This document shows, piece by piece, positions 22,854-51,231 of a stretch of DNA of 53,044 nt. A program made the translations under genes and the position numbers. Below the pieces are notes generated by a model that searched no databases, had not been told where the DNA came from, and saw only the letters and a program-made list of their open reading frames with translations. Source of the DNA: a virus (taxonomy: Duplodnaviria; Caudoviricetes); IMG/VR virus record IMGVR_UViG_3300031449_000026, positions 1-53,044 of that record; one strand, given 5' to 3'. Numbering within the stretch: position 1 is the stretch's first letter; every line of letters starts with the position of its first letter.

Positions 22854-25800
22854 TTAGAACAAGATGTTCAGGGTGCTGGGCTTGTTGAAGACGTTGCCGC
22901 TGCCGTCTTGGGCAAGCGGAGTGCAGAACGTCTCGAACTGATTCATCATGTATTCCGTGCGTGCAACAAGCTGGTTCGTCGCTGACCCGTCGTAGTTGAC
23001 AAAGCCGCCTTCGGTGTGGAGCGGCGTTTCCACGACGTACTTGCTGAACTCGTTCTTGAACAAAAGAAGAGCGTCGTTGCCAAGAATGGACGGCGCGTTG
23101 ACCTGATCGTACAGAACCCCCGCGTACTCCGCATAGGTCTGGTCCGTTGGGTTGACCAGATCTGTTCCCGTCGGGCTTTTCAATTTGTCGAAGATGTCGG
23201 ACTGCACGATGTAAGACGCTGCAATCTGCGAGGAAAGGCAAAAGTCCGGGCGCAGGAAGTTCGGATGACTGCCCATTTTTGCGGCAATGATGTTGTTGGT
23301 GATAAAAACGGTATCGTAGTAGGCCCGCGAGGTCACGCCGCCGGGATAGCCCGCCGCTCCGAAGTTCACCTGCGTTAAAAAGAAGTTCGTGGCATAGGTA
23401 TACTGCATGGTCAAGGTCGTCGTTGCCGCCGTGATGCCTGCCGCCGCCGAGAACACGACTTTGCCGCGCATATAGTCCACAGCGTACTGCGCCTGCGCCG
23501 GGGCTCCCGTTGCCGGATTGTAAAGGCTGCCGATCTCAAAGTCTTCCGTCAGGTAGCCAGGAACAAGGACGGTGTTCCCCTTCATTACCGTGATGGGGAA
23601 CCGGGTCGCGGTCGTCTCGTTGTTGAACTGATCCACGCCCACAATATCGCGCGGAATGACAAGCGGCGTTCGGCAGGCATTAGACGCGGACGGCGTAAAG
23701 CCTGGATTGCCCGCGCCCGTCAGTCGCCCGGTCGCCGCCGCCGTCGGCCCGGCAGGAGGCATCCCGGCAAGGGTATTGCCGCAGTCCGGCTGGGCGATGC
23801 AGACAACGCCCTGCGGCGGGTACGGGTTGTCCGGGGAGCGGTCGAGGGCATTAGATCCGCTGCCGGAGCCGTAGGTTACGCCGTCCTGCGTGGGTCCGTT
23901 CGTGAGGTTGCCGGGCGCGATCGGCTCCGGCGCGGTCAGCGTGATGCTGTTCTGCTCCAAAGTTGAGGAGACCATCTCAAAATAGCCGAGGTTGTCGGTT
24001 TCCAAAGCGTTGATTTGCAGGTTTCCGGCAATTGCTTCGCCGAGAAGGTCAAATGGGGCCGCGCCGGTTGCCGTCCAGTTCTGAACTTCTTTGGTCATGC
24101 CGAACGCCGAAGCGCGGCGATAGGTGTTGAACTGCTGGAAGGAGTTCTGGAGCGTCGTCCGGGGAATACCCTGGTTTTCGCCGATGCGCCCAGAGTTTCG
24201 CGTTCGGCCTCCGGTGTTGTGGATCGCCCGCTCCCGGTAACGCGACTGGAACTTGAAAATACGGCCCATGTTGCTGCCGCCGCCGCCGCCGTCAAAGCCC
24301 GGCATCACGCCCTGCCGGAACTGAGCATTGGGACCGAATGCGCCGAGGTACTTCAAGGATTGCAAATTTTGGTACAAAGGCCGCATGACCAGCGGGATAA
24401 AAACCGGCTGCTGCAAAATGTTCGCGGTCGTCAGCACCGCGTCCGTAATAGGCGCGGACTCAATGAGTCCGGCGTCCACCATCGCGTTCAGCGCGTTCAC
24501 GCCGGACTGCTGGTTCTTTTGTCCTATCGGATTGGTCATGTAGTCCACGGCATCCACGATGGCTTGCCGTCCGACTTTCTTTTCCATCGGGCCGCAGATT
24601 TCGTCCACTTTGGCCTTCGTGGAAGCGGCAAGCCGCGAGTCCGGGTTGATGCCGTATTCGCGGAACTTCTTTTCCGTGGCCGCGTTGATCGCGTCCAGGA
24701 AGCCGTCTGTGCGCTTGTCTTTGTCGTCCACGATCACGTCCACACGCTCCGTTCCGGCTCCGCTGGCATTGCCTCGCGCCTGCCCGTTGTCTGCCCCGCT
24801 CCCTGCTTGCTGACTGTCGGCAACGCCGCCCAGTTTCAAGCCTTTCATCGCCAAATCAAGCGAGGACTGGATTTCGTCCTGCGTGTCAATGGCATCCAAG
24901 AGAACGACGCGGGCCTCAGCCTCGGTTGTTTTCCCGCGCACTTTTTTGGCGAACTTCTGCCGCACTTCGGCTTGGGTGAACCGGGCGACTTCCGGGGCGG
25001 TGCCTGCTTCCACTGCGTCGGCCAGCATGGTCACTTTCGCGGTTTCCGCAGAAGCGGCGTCGCGCTGGGTCTGGGCGTCCACATAGGCATTCGCCTTTTT
25101 GATGTCCGGGGCGAGTTCGGTTCTCACCCGGTCCAAGATGGCATCCACGGTCGGGGCCGCGTCCATCGCGTCGGCGGCGTCCAGAAGCGACTGTTTCACT
25201 TCCGGGTCTTCAATCGTCTGCGCCTGGGCGCGAAGTTCGGCGGCGGTTTTCAAGGGTCTTTTCTCCTGGGTTGGTTTGGCGAAATTTGGTTTTTTGATAG
25301 AGTTATCTGCGGCAACAGGCTCGGACTTGATGCTTCCCGTCGTGACCAGCGCAGTAAGTGTCGGTGCAGGAGCGGCTTCTTCGGCATCCGTGACCTGCAC
25401 CTGCGGGAGCGCCGCCATGTCGGTCGCATCTGTCATTGGGATCAGTTCGGCGGCGTCCACCATGACCCGGCCGGCCTGCGTAAAGGCGGGGTTGGGAACG
25501 TAATCCAAAACAGCGGAAAAGACGTACTGCCCGACTTCGGCATCAAAGAGCTGCACAGCCTGCCCTTCTGCGGTCTTGCCGGACTTGGGGGGCCTGCCCG
25601 CGTGCCATCGCACCGAGCAACCGATGTGTCCCTTTTCCCTGGCGCGGTCAATGACGGCGGCTTCACGGGGCTTCTTTGGGTCAAGGTAGACCGACGCGCC
25701 GAGGTTGCCGTCCACGATAAACCAGTGGCCTTGATCCCAAATTTTGTTTTGCAGGCTTGTGATGAACTGTTTGCGGTCCGCGTCAAAGCGCGGGTGCGGC

Positions 25801-26072
25801 TCCTCGCCGTAACGATCCATCGCGTCTATGTAGGCGTTTGCGCGGGGGAGCATGGCCGCATAGAATTCTGGCTTGAAGTAGCGCCCGTTTTCGTTGACCA
25901 CGCCTGCAAGGGACGCCAGCAAGTTCAGCTTGACTTTGCCGAGGCGCTCCGAGTCTACGATCTCGTACTGCGACTCCCCGATAAGGCAGGCATCTTGCAG
26001 GTCAATCTGTGAGTCCGCAACAGCAGGCGCATTGACTTCTTCGTTTGTTATTTCGTCTTCATCTTCGGACAC
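22854..26072 (-). CDS. prohead protease-scaffold-major capsid fusion
   Basis: N-terminal NENGRYF..GEEPHP..IGCSVR..LDYVPNPAF (T4 gp21-like protease pattern), a charged helical scaffold, and a C-terminal capsid-like region; downstream of the portal. Confidence 0.8.
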   Translation of the reverse strand: MSEDEDEITNEEVNAPAVADSQIDLQDACLIGESQYEIVDSERLGKVKLNLLASLAGVVNENGRYFKPEFYAAMLPRANAYIDAMDRYGEEPHPRFDADRKQFITSLQNKIWDQGHWFIVDGNLGASVYLDPKKPREAAVIDRAREKGHIGCSVRWHAGRPPKSGKTAEGQAVQLFDAEVGQYVFSAVLDYVPNPAFTQAGRVMVDAAELIPMTDATDMAALPQVQVTDAEEAAPAPTLTALVTTGSIKSEPVAADNSIKKPNFAKPTQEKRPLKTAAELRAQAQTIEDPEVKQSLLDAADAMDAAPTVDAILDRVRTELAPDIKKANAYVDAQTQRDAASAETAKVTMLADAVEAGTAPEVARFTQAEVRQKFAKKVRGKTTEAEARVVLLDAIDTQDEIQSSLDLAMKGLKLGGVADSQQAGSGADNGQARGNASGAGTERVDVIVDDKDKRTDGFLDAINAATEKKFREYGINPDSRLAASTKAKVDEICGPMEKKVGRQAIVDAVDYMTNPIGQKNQQSGVNALNAMVDAGLIESAPITDAVLTTANILQQPVFIPLVMRPLYQNLQSLKYLGAFGPNAQFRQGVMPGFDGGGGGSNMGRIFKFQSRYRERAIHNTGGRTRNSGRIGENQGIPRTTLQNSFQQFNTYRRASAFGMTKEVQNWTATGAAPFDLLGEAIAGNLQINALETDNLGYFEMVSSTLEQNSITLTAPEPIAPGNLTNGPTQDGVTYGSGSGSNALDRSPDNPYPPQGVVCIAQPDCGNTLAGMPPAGPTAAATGRLTGAGNPGFTPSASNACRTPLVIPRDIVGVDQFNNETTATRFPITVMKGNTVLVPGYLTEDFEIGSLYNPATGAPAQAQYAVDYMRGKVVFSAAAGITAATTTLTMQYTYATNFFLTQVNFGAAGYPGGVTSRAYYDTVFITNNIIAAKMGSHPNFLRPDFCLSSQIAASYIVQSDIFDKLKSPTGTDLVNPTDQTYAEYAGVLYDQVNAPSILGNDALLLFKNEFSKYVVETPLHTEGGFVNYDGSATNQLVARTEYMMNQFETFCTPLAQDGSGNVFNKPSTLNILF

Positions 26073-26097
26073 AGATTTCTTTTACCTTTGTGGGCTT

Positions 26098-26379
26098 CTA
26101 CCATTCTCTGCCGATACTTAGGGTCTTGCCAGAGCAATTTTTGGGCCTGCTGCCGTCCGGCTTGTTCTGGTTGACAACGTACACGTTTGGGCTGTCGTGG
26201 TTGTCGCCGAGGAACACGTCCATCGAGTCAGAATCGGCCCCGGTGATGCCCGGTACGTCGCCGTAGTCATGGCGCAAGACCGTTTGCCAAGAGCCGCCCG
26301 GCCCTATGCCGGAGCGCATGGAGCCTTTGGGGTTTTCCACAGTCACGGTAAGCCCATGAATGAAAACGCGCTGACTCAA
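26098..26379 (-). pseudogene. truncated phage InPase (inorganic pyrophosphatase-like) domain
   Basis: GLTVTVENPKGSMRSG..W..HDYG..GADSDSMDVFLG..VYVVNQ; lacks the expected downstream DEHK-type segment. Confidence 0.7.
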
Positions 26380-26945
26380 GCGGTTTTGCTTTCAGGGGCC
26401 GGCGTAGTTTCAGGAGTTGTCACTTTTTCAGGCGGCGTGGACTGGTCGGCAGGTGCGCCTTGCGGCTGGGCTTCGGCAGCGGCAACGGCAACCGACTGGC
26501 TTTCCGTCGCGGGAGATAGCTCCGGTACAGTCGCGGGCGTGGAAATGTTAAGTGTTGCGGCAGTCTGCGGCTGACCGTCCGGGACGGATGCACCCGCGAC
26601 AATGCCGGGCGACCCTGCTGCTGGCAGAGCCTGAGCCTTCGGCGTGTCGGCGATGATCGTGGCTGCCGCTTGGACAGTCGGTGCGCCAGCGCCGGGGACA
26701 ACGACGCCAGGCGCGGCAATCGCGCCGACTTCACTCAGAATTGTCGCAAAGCCGAGATTGATGGCCGTTAGATCAGCAGGAGCACCGAAATCGGCGACCT
26801 GCGCGGCGAGCTTTTTTACCTGGTCCTGCAAAGCAGGCACGGCGGCGATTGCGGTTTGGGAGCGCGTGACGGCGTTGCCGATAGCGGCGGTAAGATCGGT
26901 TTCCTCTGCCGTTAAAGCGTCAATCTGGTCCTGGGTAATCTGCAT
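26376..26945 (-). CDS. coiled-coil, Ala/Pro-rich hypothetical protein
   Basis: AGGAG RBS before MQITQD. Confidence 0.6.
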   Translation of the reverse strand: MQITQDQIDALTAEETDLTAAIGNAVTRSQTAIAAVPALQDQVKKLAAQVADFGAPADLTAINLGFATILSEVGAIAAPGVVVPGAGAPTVQAAATIIADTPKAQALPAAGSPGIVAGASVPDGQPQTAATLNISTPATVPELSPATESQSVAVAAAEAQPQGAPADQSTPPEKVTTPETTPAPESKTA

Positions 26946-27100
26946 GGCGTTCTCCTGGGCTTTCATTCTGATAAAGAGTTCAGTGGTTTGAGTAAAGAGT
27001 TCAACGATGGCTTGTTCAGCCGAAATGCTTCGGAAAGTCCGATGCCTAAAAGTTCGCTGATTGCGTCGGCATAAGAAGCGAGACATAAGAGGCACCTTAC

Positions 27101-27148
27101 AATACAAAAACGCCTCTACCCAAGTGGATAAAGGCGTTCAAGACGCTC
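27101..27148 (-). terminator. terminator whose 5' arm contains the repeated GAGCGTCYTGAACGCC motif
   Basis: AACGCCTTTATCC-actt-GGGTAGAGGCGTT followed by TTTGTATT. Confidence 0.7.
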
Positions 27149-27204
27149 TCGTATGGCGTTCGCGGTTAGCGAGATATATTCTGTGCGAAAGACGTTTTCT
27201 GCGC

Positions 27205-27387
27205 CTACTTTCGCTTTGCTTCTTTTGCGGCAACGGCTTCCTGCTGGTGCTGCTTGGCAACGTCGAGCAGGTCCACCGTATCGGCTTTGTCGCTGCCGTT
27301 GATCTTGATTTCTACCAAGCCCTTCTGCGGATCGTACTTGAACAGCAGTTTGCCGGTTCCTGGTTGACGAACATCGATGTACGGCAT
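27205..27387 (-). CDS. Mu Com-like small regulator lacking the Zn-binding cysteines
   Basis: MPYIDVRQPGTGKLLFKYDPQKGLVEIKINGS parallels the Com pattern iRC..CgKLL....iEIKC.rC. Confidence 0.5.
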   Translation of the reverse strand: MPYIDVRQPGTGKLLFKYDPQKGLVEIKINGSDKADTVDLLDVAKQHQQEAVAAKEAKRK

Positions 27388-27417
27388 AGAGGCAAGGTGT
27401 CTAGGTGAGGGGACTAT

Positions 27418-27468
27418 TATCCAGAGCAAGAAAATATCCCGAGTGAGAAAATATCCAGAGCAAGAAAA
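27418..27468. repeat. three tandem 17-bp repeats
   Basis: tatccagagcaagaaaa / tatcccgagtgagaaaa / tatccagagcaagaaaa. Confidence 0.9.
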
Positions 27469-27573
27469 AAGCGGCCTAATCGCCACACATTCCGTAGGTT
27501 GTTGAAACGGAAAGCAAGGCGTTCAGGACGCTCACAAAAAGTTGCTCCTAGCAACTGCACTGGTTACGCTCTC

Positions 27574-27602
27574 ATTCTACAAGCATTTCTGTCTTCTGTC
27601 AA
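27574..27602 (-). promoter_or_regulatory. sigma70-type promoter
   Basis: TTGACA-17 nt-TAGAAT. Confidence 0.75.
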
Positions 27603-27622
27603 GCATGACTGTACCAAAAGCC

Positions 27623-27664
27623 AAAAATAAAAGCCAGCAAGCACTATCCCTAGTGCTTGCTGGC
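27623..27664 (-). terminator. intrinsic terminator after the portal
   Basis: 14-bp stem GCCAGCAAGCACTA/TAGTGCTTGCTGGC followed by TTTTATTTTT. Confidence 0.8.
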
Positions 27665-27694
27665 CTGAAAATCGTCTAAATATGCTTTCTCCCG

Positions 27695-29365
27695 TTACGG
27701 CTTCTTCTTGTAAGCGTCCCCGCCCGGCTTACCCCTCTCGCCGGGGAGCATCTTGCCGCCGCTCATGCGCTGTGAGCTGCCGCCGGTTTTAGAGTTTGCC
27801 GCGCCGTTTGAGACCCCATCGTCTGCGCCCATCATCTGCATCTCGTGTACGGTGTCGGCGTCCATATGCTTGTCGACCATCATCGCTTCCAAGAGCGCGA
27901 CGTACTCCTTCGCTTTGCCGAGTCCGAGATATTCCGCCAGCATCTCGACTGCCGTTTCCGCCGTCAAAAGCGGGAAGGGCTTGGCGTTCATACCAGCGCC
28001 GAGGGTGTTCGTCATGGCTTTGTTGATAAAGGCAATGCAGTCGTTTGCGTCCTCAAACGTCCGTTTCGGCACGGCGAGGCTGATGAGAAACGCATCCGGG
28101 TTGATGCCTTTGAGTTGAAGCTGAAGGCAGATGCCGTCAAGTATTACGCCGTAGACCCACGCAAGGTCGTAGCTCATGCCGTCCAGCCACTCGGACACGA
28201 TCAAATCCAGCGTGTCCCGGCTCATGTTGGCAAGGTTCATGCCCGAAAGCTGTAAGGGTGTTCCGAGCGCCGAGGCTTCTTTTTCCAGAAAGTAAATCAG
28301 GTCGCCAATCTCATGCACTGTCGGGTCCGACGGATGCACCTTGATGGCGACTTTCGTATCGTGGACGTACTTGGCAAGCGGATTATACGGGTCGGCGTCG
28401 GTCATTGCGGCAGTCCCGACCGCGCTGATCTGCTTTTTGTAGTCGTCAATGTCTTTTTGGGTGGTGCTGTCATCGCCTTCTTCGCCAAGCGTATGGTCTT
28501 CAATCCGGGCGGCGTTAGACTTGCGGCGCGTCTCCTGGAACGCTTCCAGCACGTCGAGGTTATGCGTGATGCCAAGCGCGGTGGCGTACTCAAACTGCCC
28601 GTAGCGGTCTTCGCCGAGGCGCTTCCAGCGGTGGTGACTGATTTGATACGCGGTGAACTCGCCGCCCGGCACGACGGACTGCGTAGACAGGTCTATTTGC
28701 ACAAAAGCGCGTTCGGGGTCTAAAAACTGGTCGGTGTCGTCCGACAACCGCTCCATCGTTTGCGCGGGCATGACAAGCTGCCGGACAATCTCGCCCTGTT
28801 TCCGGGAACCGTCCCAGGCAATGACGTTCTGAATGAACAGGCCCGCGTCCATGCGCCCGTGCCGCAGATACTTTGCCATCAGGTCAACATTAGAGTTGCC
28901 GTCCCGAAGCGTCAGGCCCGTGCGGTGCAAATAGCCCTCGGCCTCGGCTTGGGCGCGTTTTGCCGCCGGGCCAGTGGCGTCCGCCTGCCCCGGCCCGGCG
29001 TCTTTCGGCGTGAGTTTTAGCCGGAAGCCCGCTGCCGTTGCTTTGTAGACGTGCTTCTCGACAGCTGAATGGAACCGGGGATTGGTGCGGTACAGCTCCC
29101 ACATCTGCCCGATCATCTCGCGCCGTCCCCACTCCTGCTGCTGGCGCGTCAGGGGCGAGATGGCGGGCATGACCGAGCCGGCCACGCCGCCCTCGGTGGT
29201 CGCAGGCGGAGCGTCGTCAAAGAAGCTGGACAGCTTCGCGCCGATGCGGGACAAGAGAGCCGGACGCCCCGCCTGCACTTCGGGGCGAAGCGGCTGCGAA
29301 AGCAGGGCGAGGTTAGACAGCGGCGAGGCAGAGGACCGCTTGGAAAACAAAGTGTTGATTGCCAT
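27695..29365 (-). CDS. portal protein
   Basis: 556 aa directly after the terminase; HHRW..RYGQ motif and portal-like architecture. Confidence 0.8.
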   Translation of the reverse strand: MAINTLFSKRSSASPLSNLALLSQPLRPEVQAGRPALLSRIGAKLSSFFDDAPPATTEGGVAGSVMPAISPLTRQQQEWGRREMIGQMWELYRTNPRFHSAVEKHVYKATAAGFRLKLTPKDAGPGQADATGPAAKRAQAEAEGYLHRTGLTLRDGNSNVDLMAKYLRHGRMDAGLFIQNVIAWDGSRKQGEIVRQLVMPAQTMERLSDDTDQFLDPERAFVQIDLSTQSVVPGGEFTAYQISHHRWKRLGEDRYGQFEYATALGITHNLDVLEAFQETRRKSNAARIEDHTLGEEGDDSTTQKDIDDYKKQISAVGTAAMTDADPYNPLAKYVHDTKVAIKVHPSDPTVHEIGDLIYFLEKEASALGTPLQLSGMNLANMSRDTLDLIVSEWLDGMSYDLAWVYGVILDGICLQLQLKGINPDAFLISLAVPKRTFEDANDCIAFINKAMTNTLGAGMNAKPFPLLTAETAVEMLAEYLGLGKAKEYVALLEAMMVDKHMDADTVHEMQMMGADDGVSNGAANSKTGGSSQRMSGGKMLPGERGKPGGDAYKKKP

Positions 29366-38164: not shown

Positions 38165-38181
38165 GCAGGAGTTAAATAGCT

Positions 38182-38304
38182 ATGGAAATATCATGCTACG
38201 GTTGCGAAAGTTGCGGCTACTCATGGGATGATCCATCCGTTGACGACCCAAACGCACCAACAGAATGCCCGCGATGCGGGTCAGAACATTTCGGCACCGT
38301 CTAA
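38182..38304 (+). CDS. 40-aa zinc-ribbon protein
   Basis: MEISCYGCESCGYSW..ECPRCGSEHFGTV* with AGGAG RBS; not in the ORF track. Confidence 0.65.
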   Translation: MEISCYGCESCGYSWDDPSVDDPNAPTECPRCGSEHFGTV

Positions 38305-50511: not shown

Positions 50512-50720
50512 CAGTTGCTCTTTCCGGCAATCCGCCAGTCATGCCCTGCTCCCATATCATTCAGGCAGTCCATGCACAGGGACACGCCGCAGCCGCAACC
50601 CTCGTGGGCGCCGGGAGGGACTTCCCGCTCCCGAACGCACTGCGGGCAGAAGGCAAGCCTGCGGGTCATGGTTCCTTCCGCGCCGCATTCGCCGCAACGC
50701 AGGTAGATGGTTTCAGGCAT
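50511..50720 (-). CDS. small Cys-rich zinc-finger protein
   Basis: Four Cys pairs; coupled to neighbouring genes. Confidence 0.55.
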   Translation of the reverse strand: MPETIYLRCGECGAEGTMTRRLAFCPQCVREREVPPGAHEGCGCGVSLCMDCLNDMGAGHDWRIAGKSN

Positions 50721-51231
50721 TGCCTTCCTCCCATTCCCACAGGCTTAGGCTTCCTTTGGCGGGGATCGGAACAGCCAGCGGCTTGATGTTTCCCAAGACC
50801 CACGCATAGCGTCCCGGCGAGTAGTCTCCGAACGAAAGTTCCGGCTCGGCGGGCGGAAGACGAAAGAGTTCATGTGCGCCGACAGAAATCCCCGTTTCGC
50901 TGCTGATGGAAATGTCGCTTGATGCAAACGAGAAAATTCGTGAGTTGGTTGAGTAAACCCCGGTCAGTTCGCACGTCGCCACAATGCAGCCAAGTGGCAG
51001 GATTTTGTTCATTATCATGGGCCGGTTGTCCGGCACGTCATAACCTGCGTCCCGCAAAGCAGACCGAAACGGCTCCGTCAGGCAGAGTTCCCGGCACTCT
51101 CGCGGAAAGCCTTTGGCGGCATGAATGGCGAGCGGGCCACGGTAAGAACTTTGCCAACTACGGGTTTCAATCCGCTTCGCGTCTATCGCAACGAGAGTGG
51201 CCCAGGGCTGAGTCAGCGTGATTGCTTTCAT
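50713..51231 (-). CDS. ASCH domain protein
   Basis: MKAITLTQPWATLV..KRIETRSW..YRGPLAIHA..PAKGSLSLW. Confidence 0.9.
   Translation of the reverse strand: MKAITLTQPWATLVAIDAKRIETRSWQSSYRGPLAIHAAKGFPRECRELCLTEPFRSALRDAGYDVPDNRPMIMNKILPLGCIVATCELTGVYSTNSRIFSFASSDISISSETGISVGAHELFRLPPAEPELSFGDYSPGRYAWVLGNIKPLAVPIPAKGSLSLWEWEEGNA

Follow-up and report, generated by a model that had tools for sequence, protein, structure and literature searches.

A Cys-less Com-like protein and a conserved RNA hairpin at predicted terminators ahead of phage head genes: a candidate antitermination switch

Does a small gene placed between the portal gene and the head genes of a tailed phage control the transcription of those head genes through RNA? 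The question is raised by positions 27,101 to 27,664 of the virus record IMGVR_UViG_3300031449_000026 (Caudoviricetes), whose 53,044 nucleotides (nt) we call the window. All features of this locus lie on the minus strand, and their coordinates refer to the window. A 60-amino-acid (aa) open reading frame (ORF) without cysteines runs from an ATG at 27387 to a stop at 27205 (27205-27387), between two copies of an 18-nt motif, copy 1 at 27516-27533 and copy 2 at 27131-27148. The original prediction saw in it a zinc-free Com-like protein that binds the motif and thereby antiterminates its own leader and the capsid operon. We hold, with slightly better than even confidence, that the product of the ORF is related to the Com protein of phage Mu but zinc free, or is at least its functional counterpart, and that this product would stabilize an antiterminator hairpin. 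In comparisons of sequence, the logic of an RNA switch has strong backing from the association of protein and motif, from a covarying hairpin, and from the overlap of this hairpin with predicted terminators ahead of head genes; binding, the antiterminating direction of the effect, and a feedback loop are what we infer beyond that.

A small-protein family and the hairpin beside it

By sequence comparison, the window ORF belongs to a real, conserved, and unannotated family of approximately 60-aa Cys-less phage proteins. A word-indexed protein search with the ORF returned one relative, and a profile of three Cys-less sequences then retrieved 291 cluster representatives at an E value of ≤1e-3, mostly of 50 to 70 aa, with the family consensus ..VREP.TGKLLFRYDP.R.LIEI..RG..T.VDL. 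The listed members have zero to three scattered cysteines, never in a CxxC...CxxC pattern. The window ORF has no PHROG match, no Pfam family recurs consistently among 122 members, and the ESM Atlas offers unnamed viral clusters alone for the small protein. Searching the small proteins against phage records by tblastn gave weak matches only, and a DNA search of the region against phage records gave no match. Portal relatives were not found among the viral contigs, with either the single protein or a six-sequence alignment, so comparison within the lineage of this phage relies exclusively on contigs from metagenome runs. Four long proteins (P0010, P0033, P0045, and P0123; 124 to 3493 aa) contain up to nine tandem stretches that match the small-protein profile.

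The motif beside the gene is predicted to fold as a mini-hairpin of the form GA-4 bp-CNNGA-4 bp-C (bp, base pairs). Copy 1 consists of GA, a 4-bp stem GCGU/ACGC with the loop CCUGA, and C; copy 2 differs from it at one base and has the loop CUUGA. These are the only two matches in the 53 kb when both strands are searched with up to three mismatches, against 0.14 expected, and 1 of 100 shuffles gave two or more. For a family-wide comparison, 30 viral and 36 metagenome loci encoding family members were fetched, the metagenome search having used a 12-row alignment, and were scanned with the anchor pattern GA....C..GA....C, which leaves the pairing free. From 15 nt before to 350 nt after the stop codon of the small gene, 54 distinct family loci (19,036 nt) contain 54 anchor matches, 47 of them with four out of four stem pairs. 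Elsewhere (366,246 nt, both strands), 8 of 159 anchor matches are fully paired, and these 8 include window copy 1 and further likely real sites. The density of fully paired matches downstream of family genes is thus 113 times that found elsewhere. Conservation of the motif near homologs, on which the original prediction depended, is borne out: anchor matches occur in 34 of the 54 loci and in 27 of 38 protein clusters (70% identity), and the motif is also found beside true Com genes.

The twin motifs flank the ORF as the original prediction described, but the upstream copy is peculiar to the window. Across most of the family, the small gene lies directly against, or overlaps, the stop codon of the gene before it, and its sites are all downstream. 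In the window, the small gene is preceded by a promoter of its own and by a leader that contains a second site and a terminator, an arrangement that suggested positive feedback. One locus (L187) joins the window in having a site ahead of its regulator gene or inside it: a fully paired site of the Com type falls at the very beginning of the small gene's frame, approximately 168 nt before the stop.

The pairing itself is conserved through change. Across 31 rows (22 distinct), 98.9% of the cells are paired and all four pairs change on both sides; none of 500 shuffles attains the observed values, and controls in which the register is slid collapse. Two of the rows (L145b and L161b) were chosen by a pairing-based pattern, and the others by the anchor, which fixes G3 and C15 and leaves the inner three pairs free. 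G-U pairs are present, and the fold is therefore strand specific, that of the coding-strand RNA.

This bears on whether the motif could instead be a double-stranded DNA operator, an inverted repeat recognized by a small DNA-binding transcription factor. It is an imperfect palindrome near a promoter, and one database labels Com homologs “Com family DNA-binding transcriptional regulator.” We nevertheless find an operator very improbable. The half-sites change with their complementarity kept, and the G-U pairs would be A-C mismatches on the other strand. Moreover, the coding strand is where the sites lie, in terminator stems downstream of the gene; the opposite strand of all loci contains at most one fully paired match; and Com binds RNA in the published assays (PMC6483171).

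Loop variants were seen as well. In the three family members (L144/L205, L149/L209, and L207) that have W for K/R before the conserved LL, GCGC-ANAA-GCGC tetraloop hairpins occupy both site positions, and CNNGA is absent. A correspondence between the residue before LL (K/R or W) and the type of loop (CNNGA or ANAA) was considered and rejected, since some K-type loci, too, have ANAA hairpins, at the apex of the terminator; covariation of protein and RNA between W-type members and ANAA loops is only a hint. Rfam had no relevant match at E ≤ 10 in window positions 26000-28500, and among 12 related loci its sole match at E ≤ 1 was to ncS54 (E, 0.7), below the gathering score. This match, to a Burkholderia small RNA, covers a site plus terminator in L139 (2441-2498) and scores 23.2 bits against a gathering score of 43.

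The exact 18-mer extends the association to bona fide Com genes. A scan of viral contigs yielded 13 loci, and all of the non-coding matches adjoin Com-type genes. At L006 and L013, a Cys-less ORF is followed, 15 nt after its stop, by the motif, a hairpin with a T-run, and then protease-like and capsid genes. L015 has an SPP1-type portal gene, a Mu F-like gene, and a CxxC...CxxC zinc-ribbon ORF whose last codons and stop form part of the motif, followed by a terminator and a scaffold-like gene. At L009 (also L109/L167, a genome record), a PF10122 Com gene precedes the motif, 35 nt on, and then a D12 adenine methylase gene, with the motif as the 5′ arm of a helix covering the Shine-Dalgarno sequence and AUG of the methylase gene. 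In genome contigs, the 18-mer occurs at at least 120 loci, with a Com-like ORF upstream in one among the matches listed. The two scans, viral and genome, list 133 exact matches between them; 129 of these fall in open frames of at least 80 aa and were treated as chance, a filter that wrongly flagged L015. The motif as the end of a frameshifted ORF was also considered and rejected: the window frame that ends in the motif's TGA is open for 57 aa, and such a frame is Com-like only in L015.

Overlap with predicted terminators and a proposed mechanism

Where the mini-hairpins lie suggests what they may do. Copy 1 forms the entire 5′ arm of T2 (27465-27533), a long imperfect hairpin that resembles a terminator-like attenuator and ends in T6, as had been predicted for 27533-27516; its folding energy is −30.3 kcal/mol (z, −5.1), and none of 200 shuffles was equally stable. 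Copy 2 precedes T3 (27103-27139), a predicted terminator-like hairpin with its stem at 27139-27108, before TTTTTG. Here the claim that the motif at 27148-27131 forms the 5′ arm of a 13-bp terminator was right as to a terminator-like hairpin and has to be amended in two details: the stem has 14 bp, and its 5′ arm starts in the 3′ half of the motif, with just the last 8 to 9 nt (AACGCCTT) inside the stem. At both copies, the 3′ strand of the mini-hairpin is the first part of the terminator 5′ arm, so the two folds exclude each other.

The same overlap is widespread. A run of at least four T's lies within 130 nt of the motif in 32 of 33 distinct loci. In 24 of the 33, at least four of the six nucleotides in the 3′ half of the motif are paired, in the minimum-free-energy fold, with the 14 nt that immediately precede this run. 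Window copy 2 is among these 24, and copy 1 overlaps alike; in several other loci, a second mini-hairpin takes the part that overlaps the terminator. Head genes, of portal, protease, scaffold, or capsid-protease type, come next in 9 of the 10 loci sampled.

We propose that the 60-aa protein would bind the mini-hairpin while it emerges from RNA polymerase, and hold it. The held hairpin would keep the base of the terminator stem from forming beside the U-run, and transcription would continue. Read-through at copy 1 would lead into the protein's own gene, and read-through at copy 2 into the scaffold and capsid genes. At com-methylase operons, this site would instead face a helix occluding the ribosome-binding site.

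Proteins that stabilize antiterminator hairpins include BglG, SacY, and LicT with their RAT targets and the ANTAR regulators EutV, NasR, and AmiR, which use paired small hairpins. The proposed switch is reminiscent of both groups: in each, a weak hairpin whose loop bases are conserved has its 3′ strand in common with a strong terminator's 5′ arm, and the sites are often tandem pairs; such strand sharing is what we find at both window copies and in the 24 loci above. In contrast, the window protein has only 60 aa, no CAT/PRD or ANTAR domain (no Pfam match), and no evident signal input, and at many loci the second hairpin caps the terminator's apex instead of preceding the terminator.

This apical position matters because a protein bound there is compatible with the terminator fold. 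With a second Com-type site capping the apex of the terminator stem in many loci, a termination-promoting or RNA-stabilizing role is possible, which tells against antitermination. The protein might thus bind the hairpins to another end: to promote or lock termination, an autoregulation by which transcription of the head genes would be limited; to protect the 3′ end of the upstream transcript against exonucleases; or to activate downstream translation like Mu Com. At L009, and apparently at L153 too, an inhibitory helix covers the ribosome-binding site in place of a plain terminator. Moreover, translational activation is the sole Com-family activity tested (PMC6483171). We still consider these outcomes unlikely. 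The next start codon is approximately 80 nt (copy 1) and 160 nt (copy 2) from the window hairpins, so occlusion of a ribosome-binding site is impossible here, and the sharing of the mini-hairpin 3′ strand with the base of the terminator stem is expected for competition and would be superfluous for simple 3′-end binding.

A broader proposal, which we offer tentatively and at somewhat less than even confidence, is that the Com superfamily has a widespread, as yet unannotated zinc-free branch whose dedicated role is to antiterminate phage head operons via the 13-nt mini-hairpin, the site doubling as recombination microhomology. The same pairing of protein and hairpin appears, from its sequence signature, to recur in dozens of unrelated phages. 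If antitermination is correct, Com biology would extend from the translational activation of one DNA modification gene to the transcriptional timing of capsid assembly, and one of the smallest known sequence-specific RNA-binding folds would work metal free, controlling terminators rather than ribosome binding. Tiny ORFs that are annotated as hypothetical or missed would gain a function and a cognate RNA element that is not in Rfam. It would also provide a handle on the timing and dosage of tailed-phage head genes relative to the terminase and portal genes, as well as a simple, portable protein-hairpin pair for controlling transcription read-through.

Resemblance to Mu Com

Mu Com is a zinc finger mRNA-binding protein that acts by remodeling a hairpin. 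We aligned it with the window ORF, P0003, the L006 ORF, Moraxella Com (L009), and the Cys-containing L015 ORF. Five residues are invariant and in register across the six sequences (M1, R7, L14, L15, and I27), and the four zinc-ligand cysteine columns of Mu Com and Moraxella Com correspond in the window protein to Q8, T11, I29, and S32; cysteines are likewise missing from these columns in P0003 and the L006 ORF. The window protein shares with the PF10122 Com proteins of Mu and of the com-methyltransferase operons of Mu-like prophages a length of approximately 50 to 65 aa, an N-terminal four-strand ribbon, and R..(x)..KLL and IEI/K in register. An AlphaFold2 (AF2) model of the window protein (pLDDT, 94.9) has strands at 4-7, 14-19, 24-28, and 35-39 and a C-terminal helix, and four strands in matching order (2-4, 11-14, 17-22, and 29-34) appear when a PF10122 Com is modeled with AF2. 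The loss of all metal ligands with retention of a small β-ribbon has a parallel in the C− forms of ribosomal proteins, which are zinc ribbons that lost their cysteines; for Com, no such loss is described in the papers that we searched.

The RNA targets are also alike. Both are short hairpins of the form GA-4 bp-C(N)2-3GA-4 bp-C(C), lying directly 5′ of or overlapping an inhibitory RNA helix, and this Com-type cognate RNA, close to the gene, is what we find at the family loci. SELEX with the Com zinc finger gave NGAGNNCC(N)2-3GAGNNCCNN, in which CC(N)2-3GAG in a hairpin loop is the recognized part and GA is crucial, as reported in PMC6483171. The commonest natural site, GAG-NN-CC-NN-GAG-NN-CC, fits this motif, and the window sites differ from it only in the loop-closing pair, U-A for C-G. 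The known Mu target shows the anchor pattern too, 32 nt ahead of the mom start. In phages phiARM81ld (four of four pairs) and Chuche (three of four), it lies 35 nt before the methylase start, so that the hairpins at the Com loci of Mu, phiARM81ld, Chuche, and Moraxella all lie 32 to 35 nt before the regulated start codon. In an Acetoanaerobium phage, the pattern falls within the 3′-terminal part of gpCom, and a terminator-like hairpin starts in the 3′ half of the pattern.

The two systems also differ. The window protein has none of the four zinc-ligand cysteines, the Pfam model does not match it, and the profile-profile score is not significant; the inhibitory helix here is a terminator-like hairpin with a U-run and not one that occludes a ribosome-binding site; and the putatively regulated genes are head genes and not a DNA modification gene.

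Several results weigh against the proposed Com-like antiterminator and temper our confidence in it. PF10122 (Zn_ribbon_Com) recognizes Mu Com (E, 2.7e-9) and the L009 ORF (5.6e-10), but neither it nor any other Pfam family matches the window ORF, P0003, or the L006 ORF at E ≤ 10, and none of 122 family members matches PF10122 at E ≤ 1. An hhalign comparison of the 122 family sequences with five Com sequences finds the expected register at an E value of 0.1 and a probability of 0.6%, and Foldseek searches of BFVD and PDB returned no match at E ≤ 0.001. The zinc-free Com-like protein of the original prediction therefore survives in its replaced cysteine columns and in-register resemblance; neither the profile comparison nor Foldseek gives a significant match to Com, and homology to Com is not statistically established. 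A PF10122 scan of 300 genomes of one class matched two, too few for a large Com profile, and a protein search for relatives of the L009 Com returned three. On the RNA side, the data had already been inspected when the anchor pattern was chosen; 20 of the 54 loci lack the strict motif, several of them having variants with a 6-nt or ANAA loop; and the terminators and promoter of the locus are predictions only. Furthermore, no Shine-Dalgarno-like purine run was seen before ATG 27387 on reading the sequence, and no second family member was found in the 53-kb window.

“Cys-less Com-like” nevertheless seems a fair description of the window ORF, one that places it outside the Pfam family as modeled. 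The full-text literature that we searched contains no description of a Cys-less Com variant coupled to terminators, and the system is best filed as new, as a putative zinc-free variant of Com-type RNA-binding regulators coupled to terminators ahead of head genes. Two further small open frames in the window, at 38176-38301 on the plus strand and 50514-50744 on the minus strand, show the CxxC...CxxC pattern of zinc ribbons; at E ≤ 10, they match neither the Com profile nor that of the Cys-less family.

A 385-bp presence/absence segment and the layout of the locus

Contigs from four other metagenome runs were compared over 26900-27750. The contig from X2 has the long form, with no difference from the window within its reach. 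In X3, X5, and X6, which come from three studies, one contig each joins 27141 directly to 27527, with 7 letters that fit both sides. The missing segment (27142-27526) is exactly the 385 bp between the twin motifs and comprises T2, the repeats, and the ORF; the junction lies inside the 18-nt direct repeat, and the flanks differ at zero to six positions only. X3, X5, and X6 all carry a change at 27021, which suggests one lineage. The short form retains the promoter, the small hairpin, one motif, and T3.

The twin motifs are thus also the direct repeats of an indel that carries the regulator gene. It may have originated either in gene loss by recombination between the repeats or in an insertion at a preexisting site. 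For an essential switch, this is an adverse finding: with no second copy in the window, the capsid operon of these close relatives apparently works without the gene, unless a copy lies in the part of the genome that the record does not cover. The regulator may be dispensable, it may be supplied from that unseen 24% (completeness, 76%), or the insertion may be recent. The short-form relatives lower the claim of an obligatory gate and leave the family-wide association untouched. The long and short natural forms offer a ready comparison with and without the regulator gene.

The deletion invites a simpler explanation, in which the twin motifs are mainly recombination boundaries and the small gene is a mobile, moron-like cassette between ordinary terminators, with an incidental regulatory link. 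Morons are promoter-gene-terminator inserts in phage late operons, and the small gene resembles one in several ways: it has a sigma-70-like promoter upstream and a terminator downstream, in the classic moron order, lies between portal and scaffold genes, and is present or absent among close relatives. The GC content of the 385-bp segment is 0.509 (0.536 for the ORF), below the 0.595 of the window; the ORF has no ribosome-binding site; and the contigs from three studies, apparently of one lineage, skip precisely the DNA between the repeats. We nonetheless judge this explanation improbable. The variable segment excludes the promoter and the last terminator, which the short form keeps, and the cassette would therefore not be a self-contained moron. 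Unlike a moron, the family is kept at this position in many phages together with its cognate RNA site, and a covarying, strand-specific RNA hairpin across 27 protein clusters and beside true Com genes is not expected of a mere scar. Furthermore, recombination and regulation are compatible, since a functional site can also act as recombination microhomology; if the proposed RNA switch is real, phage genomes could gain and lose a regulator cassette through the conserved site, as the 385-bp indel suggests.

Among the family loci, L153 (approximately 30 to 110 nt after the stop of the small gene) and L208 have a terminator and then a near-consensus sigma-70-like promoter before the next element. 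In L153, this element is a Com-type site, and the helix after it includes the Shine-Dalgarno sequence of the next gene, an order of promoter, site, and helix that resembles the short form of the window. No typical Com-type site was seen in L208.

The portal terminator, sigma-70 promoter, and 60-aa ORF that had been claimed for the locus are all present in our analysis of its sequence. In the direction of transcription, a terminase-like ORF (30597-29410) is followed by a portal-like ORF (29365-27695; PHROG head morphogenesis/portal) and, directly after its stop, by a predicted intrinsic-terminator-like hairpin of 16 bp with a 4-nt loop and a T-run (27631-27666). In run X6, the loop of this hairpin (27647-27650) reads as its reverse complement (TCCC to GGGA, plus strand), with the 16-bp stem otherwise conserved. 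A predicted sigma-70-type promoter, TTGACA-17-TAGAAT (27574-27602; 11 of 12 matches), comes next; promoter-like sites number two in the 1.1-kb region against 0.5 expected. The predicted leader then contains a small 7-bp hairpin (27556-27540) with its T-run (27535-27556), which is T5 and not the T6 previously given; the hairpin itself stands. Between T2 and the small ORF, the three tandem 17-nt repeats are confirmed at 27468-27418 (27418-27468; identities of 100, 82, and 100%). They are without counterpart elsewhere in the 53-kb window (three matches against 0.07 expected; 0 of 100 shuffles), and the promoter scan predicts none inside them. Downstream of the ORF, the 5′ arm of T3 contains TTATCCAC at 27125-27132, close to the DnaA-box consensus, probably by coincidence.

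The gap of 595 nt after the portal-like ORF gives way to the head genes. The first after T3 is a scaffold-like gene (26376-26948), with AGGAG before its ATG at 26948. It is followed by a 93-aa ORF (26098-26379) with an InPase domain (PF18823; E, 8e-22), which in PHROGs is found within large minor-head and DarB-like proteins. The next ORF (22854-26072), of 1072 aa, probably encodes a fused head protein; it has no Pfam domain, and its C-terminal ~270 aa match phrog_22848, of unknown function, with an E value of 2.4e-25.

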